A stretch of 64,000 nucleotides of DNA from Methanotrichaceae archaeon (GTDB taxonomy: Archaea > Halobacteriota > Methanosarcinia > Methanotrichales > Methanotrichaceae). Where the stretch lies: contig CAWDLW010000011.1 in NCBI GenBank assembly GCA_963803145.1, positions 20,861-84,860 on the forward strand. Direction: 5' to 3'. The notes below the pieces were generated by a model that ran no database searches, was not told the origin of the DNA, and saw nothing but the letters and a program-made list of their open reading frames with translations. The position numbers were made by a program, and so were the translations under genes. Shown here piece after piece: positions 6,328-61,441 of this stretch. Numbering within the stretch: position 1 is the stretch's first letter; each line of letters begins with the position of its first letter.

Positions 6328-6474
6328 GAATTATCCCTCTGGGTTTTAGGTATCACCCTGGCAATTCACTTTCCAAAGATAAATACTTTCAAGCCTTTTG
6401 CAGTTACCAGTAATCAGATATGAACAAGAATGGATAGAAAATTAGAGAATGAAACAATAGTACTGTGAGGTTTT

Positions 6475-6807
6475 AGGCGAGCCAAACGCAGATTCACAGC
6501 GCCCTCCTCAGAGGGATCAACCACGGTAGTGGCGATCTTGAGACTCGCCTCGCACCTTCACACAGGCAATGCGAGACAGCACTGGTATCTGGCACAGCGC
6601 CCTTATTACAGGGACTCATTCATCAAGGATGAGGAGCCTGCACCCGCCTCGCCTGCACACATTCGATTCTCGCCGCGTTTATATACGAACTGAACGATGT
6701 ATGCCTTAACTCGCTTTCGCCGAAAACTTCGCTGTTAAGCAAGGCGCTCCATTGAGGGTGGACATACGGCCCTCGGAACTTAATCGGCTACAGCCCTGTA
6801 TCGCGGC
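6475..6807 (-). ncRNA. Candidate structured ncRNA of unknown class, copy A (~333 nt)
   Basis: No ORF. GC-rich with nested inverted repeats, colinear motif homology to 60255-60728, and a TATA box 26 nt upstream. Confidence 0.6.
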
Positions 6808-6832
6808 AAACTAACTATATTATCGTTATAGA

Positions 6833-6848
6833 TATTTATACTTTTTGG
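6833..6848 (-). promoter_or_regulatory. BRE/TATA promoter of ncRNA copy A
   Basis: CCAAAAAG-TATAAATA on the minus strand, 26 nt before the first helix. Confidence 0.6.
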
Positions 6849-20217: not shown

Positions 20218-21133
20218 GCCTGTAATGTTCACCGGGGGGGTGTACAAACACGACCTGGTCATGGAACTGGTCGATGATTTAGGGGGCTACATTCTTCAGA
20301 AAAATGTAGCACAAAGCGAGGTGATACTGCTATTACTGGTTCCCTCTGAGGACATGCAGACTCTGGAGGCTTTATCAAAGGAGCTAAGAGGAGAGCTTGT
20401 TAGGGCACCTCTTGCGGGAACTGAAGTGGCAGTCGTTACGCCAACGCTTGCCATTCATCATTTGCCTCATACTGCATGCGATATTGCCGAATACCTGCGC
20501 AGGAATGGCGCCAAATCGAATATGATCGGCCTAGCCCGCGGAGTCGGCCGCGAGATCGCCCAGATAAACGAGTACGAGGCGGCTCTAATAAATGAGCACG
20601 ATGCGGCAGTCTTCATATTCGGAAACTTCGCCGAATGCATCCGAAAAAAGGAAAATCTCTACAGAAATATCAGCGTGCCTGTCGTTGTCACAGGCGGTCC
20701 AGAGATCCCTAAGGAGGATATGCCATATGCCTTCGAGTACGTGCCATCTGTTGGAAGGATAGCCCATAGGGCCAGGAAGGCGACGGAAATAGGCACACTT
20801 GACCTGATCATAGATGCAGCCGGACACGCTTTGGATAAGACAAGAGCTGATATCGCCAAGGATCCTTTGACCACATCGCCTCCACGTGTCATGAATGCCG
20901 TACGGGAGCAGGTTCCTGAGGTGGAGTACTCATTCTCGCCACTGCCTATTGCGCTCAATCTTACGGGCGTAAGGGTAAAGCTGCCATTTGGAGAATACGT
21001 GGATCGCGTAAAGGCTGTCAGGTTCGATGAAGGCTTGACATTGGGCGAGATCGCTACGATAAAACCCTCCCGGATGAAAAGCTATATACTCGTGAGAATA
21101 TTGCCTGCATCCGAGACTGGCTTTGTGTTTTAA
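20210..21133 (+). CDS. mmp7: Methanogenesis marker protein 7
   Basis: GGVYKH, HHLPHTACDIAEYLRR, MIGLARG. Confidence 0.92.
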   Translation: MLEPVMFTGGVYKHDLVMELVDDLGGYILQKNVAQSEVILLLLVPSEDMQTLEALSKELRGELVRAPLAGTEVAVVTPTLAIHHLPHTACDIAEYLRRNGAKSNMIGLARGVGREIAQINEYEAALINEHDAAVFIFGNFAECIRKKENLYRNISVPVVVTGGPEIPKEDMPYAFEYVPSVGRIAHRARKATEIGTLDLIIDAAGHALDKTRADIAKDPLTTSPPRVMNAVREQVPEVEYSFSPLPIALNLTGVRVKLPFGEYVDRVKAVRFDEGLTLGEIATIKPSRMKSYILVRILPASETGFVF

Positions 21134-59740: not shown

Positions 59741-60055
59741 GTGGATATGTGTAAACGCTTTTATGGGCGTGATGGTTGTATCACTACAGAAAGAACTAAT
59801 GCAGGGATTAATGAGAGCGTATCTTTTTCAATCGATTCTTGGGTGATTTTTAACTATAGTTCTGATGTCTGGCGAGGCACCGCGAAGGCGAGACATATAA
59901 CCTCTTTGGGGAATGGAGAAGGGACCTTCCGGCGGCCTGGCGGAGAATACAATGGCAAAATAGTAATTGAAAGTGTATATTCAGATGGAGTGCATGATGC
60001 GGCTGAGATACATTTTAGCGGAAAAGGCAAACTGGGACATATCTCCCTCGTTTGA
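59741..60055 (+). CDS. Hypothetical protein
   Basis: 104-aa ORF with AGGTG RBS and a T-rich tract after the stop. Confidence 0.45.
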   Translation: MDMCKRFYGRDGCITTERTNAGINESVSFSIDSWVIFNYSSDVWRGTAKARHITSLGNGEGTFRRPGGEYNGKIVIESVYSDGVHDAAEIHFSGKGKLGHISLV

Positions 60056-60254
60056 TCTTTTTCTTCTGGACTTCGCGAATTTTCCTAGAGTTGCGTTATC
60101 TAATTAGCAGCTTGAAATTAAGGCCAAATGATTAGATTCATTGCAGCATCTCGTTTTTTCATTTTCTTTGTTGGGATCTTTCAAGTAAAGGTTCCAAATT
60201 TGCGAGGCTCTGATCATAAACTATTTGTATCCATAACAGACAAACATAGTATTT

Positions 60255-60728
60255 GCCGCGTTTTGCGCTGTTCGACGAGGGTTAATCCACCGGCAGGGCT
60301 CTCAAGGCTTGGAATTCGATAGGCGGATCTTTCGCTGATCTGCTGAGGAATGGCGAAAAGCCTGAGAGGTGCAACGCTCATGAGGGCGTTAGCATCCGGT
60401 GAATATTGGGGAGAAGCTGAGACCTACCGGTCAGAGATGTGCACGCCTTAACTGGCGTAGCATGCCTTCATTCAGCTATACCTGGAGTCCTCGTTTTGTG
60501 CGGGACGCGGCACTAGCCGAGGCAAAGGCGGGCGCAGGCTCTGCATCTTAAAGGTGTCGAGCTCCTGTAAAACGGACGCTGTGCTAAATACCAGCTAGAT
60601 ACCGGTGCTGTGCTGCCTTGGAGCCAAGGTTGAACATCGAGGCTCTGGGCGGGAAAACCGGCCTACACTACGGTGATAGGCTCCTGTTAAGGACGCTGTG
60701 GATCGGCGTTGGTCCGCCCTTGGCTCGA
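60255..60728 (+). ncRNA. Candidate structured ncRNA of unknown class, copy B (~474 nt)
   Basis: 15-bp helix 60254-60268/60498-60512 with G-U pairs, many hairpins, and colinear homology to 6475-6807. Confidence 0.6.
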
Positions 60729-60890
60729 TTACCCATCCTCTAATTATCTCAAGCATAAGGGCAAGCCAGGAGATTTCATTAGGCCCCTTTACGATAACTC
60801 TATGGTATTAAGCAATCTTTAAAAAAGTCATAGTGCCATGCTGAAGGGCGCAACCATAGCCCCTCAGTTATGACAGCATAAGCATAGACC

Positions 60891-61085
60891 TTATACTTTT
60901 TCTACTTTCTCTGCCTTGGGGCCCCTCTCGCCCTCTACTACCTCGAAGCTGACCTTGTCACCCTCATCGATAGAAACCCCAGGCTTCAAACCTGAAGCGT
61001 GAACAAAATAATCTTTTCCGTCATCGCCAGCGATGAATCCAAAACTCTTAACTCTGTTGAAAAACTTTACTGTTCCATTTACCAT
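60891..61085 (-). CDS. cspA: Cold-shock domain protein
   Basis: GTVKFFN.VKSFGFI, DYFVHAS, GERGPKA. Confidence 0.92.
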   Translation of the reverse strand: MVNGTVKFFNRVKSFGFIAGDDGKDYFVHASGLKPGVSIDEGDKVSFEVVEGERGPKAEKVEKV

Positions 61086-61441
61086 TTTAGTTCCTCAGTT
61101 AGACGTAGGTATAGCTTTTCTCTATATAACTCTATTTGTAACCTTTATTTCAACATTTCGGCAATTCGTATTTGAGCGCGAAAAAATGCTGAAAAACGAA
61201 GATCGACTATACCTCCAGACCATCACGCTTGACCTGTCAGCTTTCCAGGATGTCTAGGTATAATGCTGAGGTAGAATATCCAGATTCCTTTGCTAGCTGC
61301 TCAAAAAGTTCCCTTTGCGCAGGGAGCGGGTATATATGTGAAGATACCTACTATTATCTGGCGTGCCTTTAACCGGGCCGGAACGTCGGCCCAAAAAGTA
61401 TTAAGGCTTATTAAAAGCAAGGCACAAGGTGAGAATATTAT

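Follow-up and report, generated by a model that had tools for sequence, protein, structure and literature searches.

To our knowledge, very few large structured RNAs have been described in Archaea besides ribosomal RNA (rRNA), RNase P RNA, signal recognition particle (SRP) RNA, introns, and transposon-linked guide RNAs. Here, we analyzed a 64,000-nucleotide (nt) stretch of DNA from a Methanotrichaceae archaeon (GenBank assembly GCA_963803145.1, contig CAWDLW010000011.1, forward-strand positions 20,861 to 84,860). This whole stretch is referred to as the window, and it contained two diverged copies, A and B, of a large structured noncoding RNA (ncRNA) that had been pointed out in a preliminary description of the sequence. 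We put the probability at about 0.55 that copies A and B are genes of a new, Methanotrichaceae-specific family of large stand-alone structured ncRNAs that likely act in trans as scaffolds.

The RNA was reminiscent of OLE, GOLLD, ROOL, and raiA, which are likewise stand-alone RNAs of several hundred nt with many covarying helices, invariant unpaired blocks, a restricted lineage, and a function that is not deducible from context. ROOL, GOLLD, and OLE are reported to form RNA-only multimers (10.1101/2024.12.08.627333). The family examined here differed from these RNAs in that it had no Rfam 15 match, was archaeal, was present in multiple copies with diverged paralogues, had a separable 5' core, and showed no link to a prophage or plasmid. 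The archaeal RNase P and SRP RNAs resembled it in size, in having a high G+C content in a lower-G+C genome, and in having ends joined by a long helix, but neither model matched it.

Two other kinds of RNA invited comparison. HEARO and omega RNAs are structured multicopy RNAs of ~200-300 nt in archaea and bacteria, and some of them lack an intact open reading frame (ORF) next to them. In contrast to them, the RNA in the window had no Rfam match, no adjacent nuclease ORF, and no variable guide at either end; it had its own upstream promoter block, whereas HEARO and omega RNAs lie inside a transposon end. CsrB, RsmY, and RsmZ are paralogous small RNAs with a repeated motif that sequesters a protein. 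By analogy, the RNA described here had several paralogues per genome and an internal structural repeat to which multiple molecules of a single protein could attach, but its repeat was a multi-helix module of ~95 nt that occurred twice, whereas CsrB has many short GGA hairpins. We know of no CsrA in Archaea.

The preliminary description had proposed that the two GC-rich segments shared landmarks in the same order, and every landmark was located in the sequence: TTTGCCGCG (60252-60260 in B and 6810-6802 in A), AGGCGGGYGCAGGCTC, AGATACCRGTGCTGT, CACTAC, two CGCTGTG blocks, and the CGCGGC that closed the 5' domain. The proposed extents (60255-60728 and 6475-6807) were adjusted slightly to those in Table 1. 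When copies A and B were aligned pairwise with MAFFT, the mean column identity was 69%. The matches were confined to the 3' half, and this alignment left the 5' ends and their promoter blocks out of register. The difference in length between A and B had been attributed mostly to extra hairpins, which turned out to be one instance of a wider separability of the 5' and 3' domains.

The plus strand of copy B folded with a minimum free energy (MFE) of -215.9 kcal/mol (z = -5.13), and none of 100 shuffled sequences folded as well. On the minus strand, the corresponding values were -164.6 kcal/mol and z = -2.05. Three structural claims of the preliminary description were borne out by these and related data. 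The 15-bp helix that was predicted to close the 5' domain of B (P1 in Table 1) was part of the MFE fold. The helix closing the 3' part, which consisted of two segments in B (listed under module II in Table 1) and of UGUGA(A)GG/CCUCACA plus AGGCGAG/CUCGCCU in A, differed between the copies yet still paired, as indicated by direct reading and by helices 6 and 7 of the covariation test described below. Furthermore, many conserved pairs in the 3' domain were G-U pairs on the RNA strand (for example, alignment columns 76-115, 163-251, and 224-235). Because these would be C-A on the opposite strand, they fixed the strand, and together with the far better fold of the plus strand they agreed with a plus-strand RNA. 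The segments had also been described as lacking a credible ORF, and no ORF was conserved across 38 copies, in which the longest ORFs (median 80 amino acids) varied in strand, position, and sequence, and the alignments of the copies contained many indels. The copies therefore lacked the conserved reading frame expected of a protein-coding gene.

The 3' domain, which was ~215 nt long, consisted of two similar multi-helix modules in tandem. Within the closing helix of each module were three hairpins, one of them variable, one of the UCC..GGA type, and one of the ACGCUG..CRGYG type. Modules I and II of copy B aligned with a score of 52, compared to 30.2 +/- 6.7 for shuffled sequences (3 of 1000 scored as high). 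Covariation was analyzed in 42 non-identical domains from 8 genera, which were aligned with MAFFT alone and without fitting the alignment to the structure. A simple count of pairing columns was unable to separate alternative pairings because the two modules resembled each other; hence, helices were taken from ensemble-averaged pair probabilities plus direct reading. The resulting structure had 58 pairs in 11 helices, and 85.4% of the cells were paired, compared to 33-50% when the partners were slid by 1-3 columns. Changes on both sides were found in 36 pairs. The cells with double changes numbered 145, as opposed to 63 +/- 7.6 in the shuffles and 51-66 in the slid controls, and in no measure out of five was the observed value equaled by even one of 500 shuffles. 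Near-invariant unpaired GGRCGCUGUG blocks were present twice. Mutual information, which was computed from a model-fitted alignment of 57 unique rows, mostly lengthened known helices; the extensions were the U-A/C-G pairs closing the UCC..GGA hairpin, an ACCG/UUGG helix, and A-U/G-C pairs on the stem of module I. The leftover high-scoring column pairs among the 57 rows were not antiparallel runs, and no pseudoknot or tertiary contact is claimed from them.

The 5' domain was closed by GCCGCG/CGCGGC and ranged from 125 to 300 nt across the copies in this genome; its variable interior was where paralogues chiefly differed. In 27 long-type copies, which were again aligned with MAFFT without reference to structure, we identified 53 pairs in 11 helices. 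As in the 3' domain, most cells were paired (84.3%, versus 32-45% in the slid controls), 29 pairs had changes on both sides, and double-change cells were in excess (112, versus 55 +/- 5.8). For four of the five measures, the observed value was never equaled in 500 shuffles; for the fifth (further pair types), it was equaled once. The best-supported elements were the 13-bp closing helix and a nearly invariant 12-bp hairpin, UGCRYGCC-NUNAYN-GGCRYAGCA. The latter, which we call the signature hairpin (helix 11), had 12 pairs, of which 6 showed double changes, and was 89% paired. Hence, covariation supported more than 100 base pairs over the two domains. Look-alikes of kink-turn (K-turn), C/D-box, and hammerhead motifs (a GA/AA tandem in helix S1 and CUGAUGAG in some 5' domains) were not kept across copies and were rejected.

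To survey the distribution of the RNA, we used two covariance models: R1, which covered the 3' domain (231 positions), and R2, which covered the 5' core (110 positions). With genome matches counted at E <= 0.001, R1 matched 88 of 105 Methanotrichaceae genomes, a recurrence far beyond chance. These genomes belonged to 12 of 16 genera and had 1-13 matches each. R2 matched 90 of the 105 (in total, there were roughly 380 R1 and 260 R2 hits), and one or both domains were present in 14 of the 16 genera. Outside the family, R1 had no match in 76 genomes that represented four further families within the class or in a phylum-wide sample of 146 genomes, and R2 had no match in the 146. A pattern for the signature hairpin (TGCRYGCYNTNAYNKGCRYAGYA) occurred in 73 of 104 family genomes but was absent from all 287 genomes examined from the rest of the class; its reversed control yielded 5 matches. 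Among the named records listed as pattern matches were contigs of Methanothrix sp. and Methanotrichaceae archaea, as well as many chance matches in high-G+C bacteria of the Streptomyces type. R1 confirmed 14 of 14 archaeal loci tested, all of which were titled Methanothrix, Methanotrichaceae, or "uncultured archaeon," and none of the 7 bacterial or 6 viral loci tested. Plasmid and phage collections contained no blastn match. The results showed that the RNA family exists, that its fold is under selection, and that it is confined to Methanotrichaceae among the genomes searched.

The two domains did not always occur together. In genus g6 (genomes of 1.9 Mb), R1 matched none of 7 genomes and R2 matched all 7, with exactly one match per genome. 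The g6 gene was ~160 nt long and was flanked on one side by the 3' end of a feoB-like gene and on the other by an ABC permease gene in convergent orientation. Its promoter block was related to that of the other copies, its closing helix had 17 bp, and it had the signature hairpin and a pyrimidine-rich tail but no 3' domain. Longer 5'-only genes were found in two g8 genomes (G022 and G064), and in a g3 genome (G004) the 5' domain was followed by an unrelated 3' part. Conversely, A-type copies, including copy A of the window, had the 3' domain plus a short 5' domain without the signature hairpin, and genera g10 and g11 matched R1 only. Because some genera have genes with the 5' domain alone, the RNA is modular and its domains are separable.

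The Rfam scan that the preliminary description had proposed found nothing, and the novelty of the RNA stood. Specifically, Rfam 15 gave no match in the 64-kb window at gathering thresholds and three noise matches (11-15 bits) around B at E <= 10. Ten diverse homologous loci gave flanking tRNAs and noise only, and the 5'-only form gave noise only. The RNA had also not been recognized as RNase P RNA, SRP RNA, a group I/II intron, a HEARO/omega RNA, or a riboswitch, which agreed with the Rfam results and with the placement of RNase P and SRP RNA elsewhere in the 4.13-Mb source assembly (G000; contigs are C-numbered, and copies A and B are on C11). SRP RNA (RF01857) had a single match (C34:22164-22479, 181 bits), which was not this RNA. 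RNase P RNA is normally present once per genome; here, archaeal RNase P RNA (RF00373) was found at three other places with 208-215 bits, none of which was a copy of this RNA. All three matches were full length; two scored 214.8 bits and the third scored 208.1 (C9:3971-4272, C38:46773-47074, and C17:254301-254602). The estimated contamination of the assembly is 6.77%, so instead of being true paralogues, the three may reflect contig duplication or the presence of a second strain. No published description of the RNA was found in a literature search that covered mostly titles and abstracts, with supplements outside it. The accessible text of PMC10477309 mentioned running Rfam and held no description of this RNA, and the accessible text of PMC5867862 held none either. 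With no Rfam family and no paper found, we rated the RNA as a new class. The covariation, the G-U pairs, the lack of a conserved ORF and of an Rfam match, the differing and sometimes convergent downstream genes, and the RNA-library contigs (see below) supported a stand-alone, selected, plus-strand structured RNA outside the known families.

Each gene appeared to have its own upstream block. A related block (AACTACAAATATCTATAA, <=4 mismatches) preceded 26 of 42 copies that were examined, and a 5' start similar to UUUGCCGCG was located in 38 of the 42. The block was highly conserved across genera, with ...ACCGAAAACTACAAATATCTATAACGATT followed by 10 nt and then UUUGCCGCG. A 24-nt promoter motif (<=5 mismatches) had five matches in the genome, and four were at RNA copies, including the promoter of copy A (C11:27704, which is position 6844 of the window); in this genome, the block was thus specific to the family. 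Judged from its spacing of ~25 nt from the start, the upstream block is probably an archaeal promoter with a transcription factor B recognition element (BRE) and a TATA box. At the other end, a T-rich stretch (>=7 T in 10) was present within ~80 nt past the last helix in 31 of the 42 copies; copy B was not among them.

Seven metatranscriptome runs from four studies held part of the window, and contigs from four of the runs were placed on positions 59800-61200 at >=88% likeness. Within this region, the RNA-library contigs covered only 60264-60739 and the csp gene (60888-61115). The depth was zero in all four runs at 59800-60222 and 60740-60880, which we used only beside the positive cover of the RNA, since contigs cannot prove absence. 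Three contigs were nearly identical to copy B (99-100%; 118 nt with no differences, 137 nt with two, and 163 nt with one). In addition, sequences related to the signature hairpin region reached word depths of several thousand or more in one soil metatranscriptome. The family had the covariation-supported fold, the promoter block and T-rich end of a separate transcription unit, and the RNA-library contigs expected of large structured stand-alone ncRNAs, although contigs carry neither strand nor ends.

We propose that each gene would be transcribed from its own conserved archaeal promoter block into a discrete transcript of about 160-500 nt. This transcript would contain a 5' core, closed by a 13-17-bp helix and bearing the near-invariant hairpin, which in most genera is joined to the ~215-nt 3' extension. 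The RNA would then act in trans as a stable scaffold that binds one or more lineage-specific proteins or assembles with itself, with the duplicated 3' modules serving as repeated binding or assembly sites, and the family would grow by segmental duplication at the DNA level and lose copies by decay. We favored a trans-acting scaffold because the RNA had joined ends, a multi-junction fold, a duplicated module, invariant unpaired blocks, and a dedicated promoter, and showed no cis-acting or guide feature.

Several points weigh against this proposal. The scaffold or ribonucleoprotein role is suggested by analogy, and no protein family recurred beside the copies in this genome, nor was a partner protein found in their neighborhoods. 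Assembled environmental contigs reveal no strand, ends, or level, and they may include DNA carry-over. Because the sequences used to test the 5' structure were also those whose folds had yielded it, the comparison with its slid versions was flattering; the double-change counts of the 5' domain were unaffected by this derivation. The shuffle control ignores relatedness, and we relied on the slid controls in that respect. Finally, neither domain was found in genus g12 (2 genomes) or g5 (3 genomes), which were 80-96% complete. These genera may hold diverged forms, so a family-wide presence is not proven.

The preliminary description had counted two copies, which proved to be an undercount. Searches of the source assembly with blastn, nhmmer, and a covariance model identified at least nine full copies, including A and B, and weaker fragments on C17, C14, C20, C18, and C42. 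The copies were 60-95% alike and had a common plan that consisted of a ~45-nt AT-rich block, UUUGCCGCG, the 5' domain, and the ~215-nt 3' domain; similarity was lost soon after ...CUCGAUUAC. Close paralogues were alike for 110-125 nt past the 3' end and for about 50-100 nt before the 5' end. The copies closest to A were C2 and C18c, which were 86-87% identical to it over 396 nt.

Some copies appeared to have been duplicated along with their surroundings. The C42 copy and C18a shared a 1.38-kb duplicated unit (85.7% identity) that consisted of an MC1 gene, a 58-amino-acid ORF, the RNA, and 125 nt downstream. The MC1 chromatin-protein genes (PF05854, 2.6e-37) were ~350 nt upstream of the RNA at L200:6909-7187 (minus strand; contig C18) and L002:566-841 (plus strand; contig C42), where L numbers designate extracted loci. 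The ATG was changed to ATA in the C42 copy of MC1, which may therefore be a pseudogene. The divergent 58-amino-acid ORF (MVKKAKKKNDAVMTGILVTRFKMGL...), which lay between MC1 and the RNA, had no Pfam match and recurred beside the RNA in several genera. C18b was 1.45 kb from C18a and had lost the 5' domain. In a sister species (G002), the site of copy B had flanks that were 92-95% identical, and positions 60076-60790 were replaced by ~270 unrelated nt (G002:C1:887533-887809); the nearest G002 relative of B (86% identity) was in a tandem pair elsewhere. Hence, copies change place between sister species. We also observed that a 60-nt stretch upstream of the B promoter (60107-60166) was 77% like the DNA that immediately precedes the MC1-RNA unit of C18, a resemblance that suggests that B was derived from an MC1-RNA unit after MC1 was lost. 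The pattern would be consistent with duplication, relocation, and decay of copies at the DNA level.

Table 1. Positions of the large RNA in the window and the source assembly and examples of a small C/U-rich RNA-like gene, listed as small RNA (window numbering for copies A and B; C and L numbers are contigs and loci)
Feature	Position	Strand	Length	Basis or remarks
Copy B, whole RNA	60252-60731	+	~480 nt	Fold z score and covering RNA-library contigs
Copy B, promoter block	60208-60251	+		ATAAACTATTTGTATCCATAAC at 60216-60237, BRE/TATA-like, ~25 nt upstream of conserved 5' end
Copy B, 5' domain	60252-60514	+		P1, 60254-60268 with 60498-60512; multi-branched interior
Copy B, signature hairpin of 5' core	60440-60462	+		UGCACGCC-UUAACU-GGCGUAGCA, near-invariant
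Copy B, 3' domain	60515-60731	+		R1 180.9 bits; modules I and II
Copy B, module I	60526-60621			Closing helix AAGGCGG/CUGCCUU
Copy B, module II	60637-60731			Closing helix AUCGAG/CUCGAU plus GGGCGGG/UCCGCCC
Copy A, whole RNA	about 6460-6810	-	~350 nt	R1 162.9 bits; fold z = -2.59
Copy A, promoter block	6811-6846	-		AAAAAGTATAAATATCTATAAC at 6846-6825
Copy A, 5' domain	6662-6810	-	149 nt	Short, without signature hairpin
Copy A, 3' domain	6460-6661	-		Joined to short 5' domain
RNA copy	C42:11447-12007
RNA copy C18a	C18:129316-129879
RNA copy C18b	C18:130758-131002
RNA copy C18c	C18:43357-43770
RNA copy	C17:1604-2176
RNA copy	C35:5426-5941
RNA copy C2	C2:11386-11801
Small RNA	L002:1800-1858 (= C42:12073-12131)
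Small RNA	C18:129202-129247	-
Small RNA	C17:1483-1529	-
Small RNA	C17:87326-87384
Small RNA	C17:86177-86230
Small RNA	C8:84430-84489
Small RNA	C21:14247-14301
Small RNA	C25:141215-141273	-

The gene downstream of copy B (60891-61085, minus strand) encoded a cold-shock-domain protein (PF00313, 4e-19). It was on the opposite strand and convergent, as previously stated for this cspA gene, in agreement with the view that B is not its leader. Other genes near copy B encoded acetyl-CoA hydrolase/GNAT and HtpX/PspAB proteins, and those near copy A encoded a sensor domain, NUDIX, a flavin reductase, and a DDE transposase. The statement that both copies lie among decayed or orphan ORFs held in part: there were ORFs without a family match and the transposase gene was 3.2 kb from A, but intact housekeeping genes were present too. 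Neighboring genes were unrelated from copy to copy, and those of the other copies included genes for a histidine kinase, SOUL, molybdopterin oxidoreductases, IS1-like transposases, a tyrosine integrase, Hsp20, a prolyl-type tRNA synthetase, NAD kinase, arginine decarboxylase, and a LigD primase-polymerase.

Flanking ORFs were compared all against all at 10 places in this genome (+/-6 kb) and at 42 loci (+/-1.5 kb). The largest clusters consisted of spurious frames that fell within the RNA and were discarded, as was a candidate conserved ORF (L002:541-816, minus strand) that was an antisense frame of MC1 with no family match. The recurrent neighbors were the MC1 gene, the 58-amino-acid ORF without a family, and DUF1699, each in a subset of loci. 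Such loci may be orthologous or segmentally duplicated, and we do not claim an association. A DUF1699 gene (PF08004, 1.2e-55) was directly upstream of the RNA at L028:625-1107 (plus strand) and also at L019, L039, L049, and L050 (genera g2 and g16), an adjacency that may be plain synteny. Transfer RNA genes were 600-1000 nt from the RNA in two relatives (L030:645-717 and L019:601-678, both on the plus strand).

A second multicopy gene, which resembled a small RNA gene, was observed outside the window (Table 1). It had a promoter-like CGAAAACTATATAT block, a hairpin (GGCAAAAGUC...GACUUUUGCC) whose loop usually carried UCCCUCCUACA, and a UCCCUCC(UU) tail. Its two C/U-rich motifs were complementary to ribosome-binding sites (RBSs) of the GGAGG type, and Rfam gave no match to it in the loci that contained it. 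Anti-RBS small RNAs (sRNAs) of this kind, sRNA41 and sRNA154, are described for Methanosarcina mazei (PMC5867862); they are the closest precedent, by likeness in kind rather than by established homology. Base pairing between the small and large RNAs was considered as evidence of a connection and rejected, since the duplex energies were at the level of shuffled sequences.

The copy number and turnover of the RNA raise the possibility that it belongs to a selfish, non-autonomous mobile element, either one similar to a short interspersed element (SINE) or a retrozyme or one carried by an integrating element. The family is multicopy (1-13 matches per genome), there are fragments and a 5'-truncated copy, copy B is missing between flanks of 92-95% identity in G002, and genes for IS1-like transposases, a tyrosine integrase, or a DDE transposase lie 1-4 kb from some copies. 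However, the G002 site was a swap of ~715 nt for ~270 unrelated nt rather than a clean insertion, although no search for terminal repeats or target duplications was made. Moreover, the paralogues are old (60-87% identity) and have kept their pairing through compensatory change, each g6 genome has exactly one copy, the plasmid and phage collections had no blastn match, all 6 viral pattern matches failed the covariance model, and duplicates take along flanking genes such as MC1, as in segmental DNA duplication. We consider a mobile element unlikely, and the suggestion in the preliminary description that mobile DNA carries the RNA was not borne out by these same plasmid, phage, and viral results, with terminal repeats lying outside the search. 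The combination of a conserved scaffold, a variable region, and many copies would also suit an RNA that serves as guide or scaffold to a nuclease or recombinase whose gene lies elsewhere, in the manner of a TnpB/IscB omega RNA or a bridge RNA. But the variable part was internal to the closed 5' domain rather than terminal, and similarity persisted past the 3' end (584 nt at 95% for C18c and C2, and 125 nt downstream for the C42 copy and C18a); therefore, there was no guide-like flank. In addition, no TnpB, IscB, or IS110 gene adjoined the copies examined, Pfam scans of the neighbors of nine copies contained no OrfB/TnpB or HNH-RuvC protein, and there was no match to HEARO or any other Rfam family, all of which makes a guide very improbable. 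A ribozyme that cleaves itself or a separate substrate seems distinctly doubtful. Catalytic and ligand-binding RNAs typically have such a size, a multi-junction fold, and near-invariant unpaired blocks like those seen here and in the signature hairpin, but no Rfam ribozyme family matched even at E <= 10, and no consistent internal end was seen in the RNA-library contigs, which cannot show ends.

Two further explanations concern what lies downstream of the RNA. For a cis-acting leader or riboswitch, the downstream gene should be the regulated one, and two copies do have a same-strand ORF 170-260 nt downstream (encoding a DUF6612 protein and Hsp20). On the other hand, copy B and C18a face convergent genes, the downstream genes are otherwise from unrelated families and 170-1400 nt away, 31 of 42 copies have the T-rich stretch within ~80 nt after the last helix, and the space in between is often occupied by the small RNA gene, which has a promoter-like block of its own. 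No consistent class of same-strand downstream genes was found among the copies, and a leader is scarcely credible. The small RNA itself suggests a riboregulatory pair, in which the large RNA would be the co-transcribed precursor, co-regulated partner, or decoy of an anti-Shine-Dalgarno-like small RNA. Of 55 unique copies with >=200 nt of downstream sequence, 25 had the small element on the same strand, 35-84 nt beyond the end of the R1 match; it was present in all 15 long-type loci that were aligned, its promoter-like block begins like that of the large RNA (ACCGAAAACTA...), and its exact pattern was multicopy in 73 of 105 family genomes, among them all 59 of the g2 genomes. Yet neither copy in the window is followed by it, 6 of its about 10 copies in this genome stand alone, and its exact pattern was not found in g6, g8, g13, g9, or g7, although each of these genera has the large RNA or at least its core. 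The energies of duplexes between the tail and the neighboring large RNA were no better than those with mononucleotide shuffles of the large RNA (mean z, 0.03 for 23 pairs), and the predicted sites were inconsistent. Such a pair is thus improbable, and the trans-acting scaffold remains the reading that we prefer.

A more far-reaching version of the trans-acting scaffold, which we regard as rather unlikely and which is drawn from analogy, is that the RNA forms the core of a lineage-defining machine of Methanotrichaceae. The single-copy 5' core of the g6 type would function alone, and its own function would be catalytic or would consist of binding a ligand or protein; the duplicated 3' modules would be an addition that drives homo-oligomeric assembly of a large RNA or ribonucleoprotein particle similar to the cages of ROOL, GOLLD, or OLE.

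For the family as a whole, a covariance model would prevent these loci from staying blank or being miscalled as ORFs in hundreds of metagenome-assembled genomes. Complete genomes of Methanothrix size (G035 and G073) carried 5-6 copies of the RNA, which makes direct laboratory study feasible. The word depth in the soil metatranscriptome suggests that the RNA is worth measuring, although contig depth is no measure of expression. In wetlands, rice paddies, and digesters, acetoclastic methanogenesis is mainly the work of Methanothrix and its kin. If the machine or particle proposal is true, then the RNA would be the first orphan "ornate" RNA class in Archaea, and it would be found in organisms that make much of the biogenic methane.

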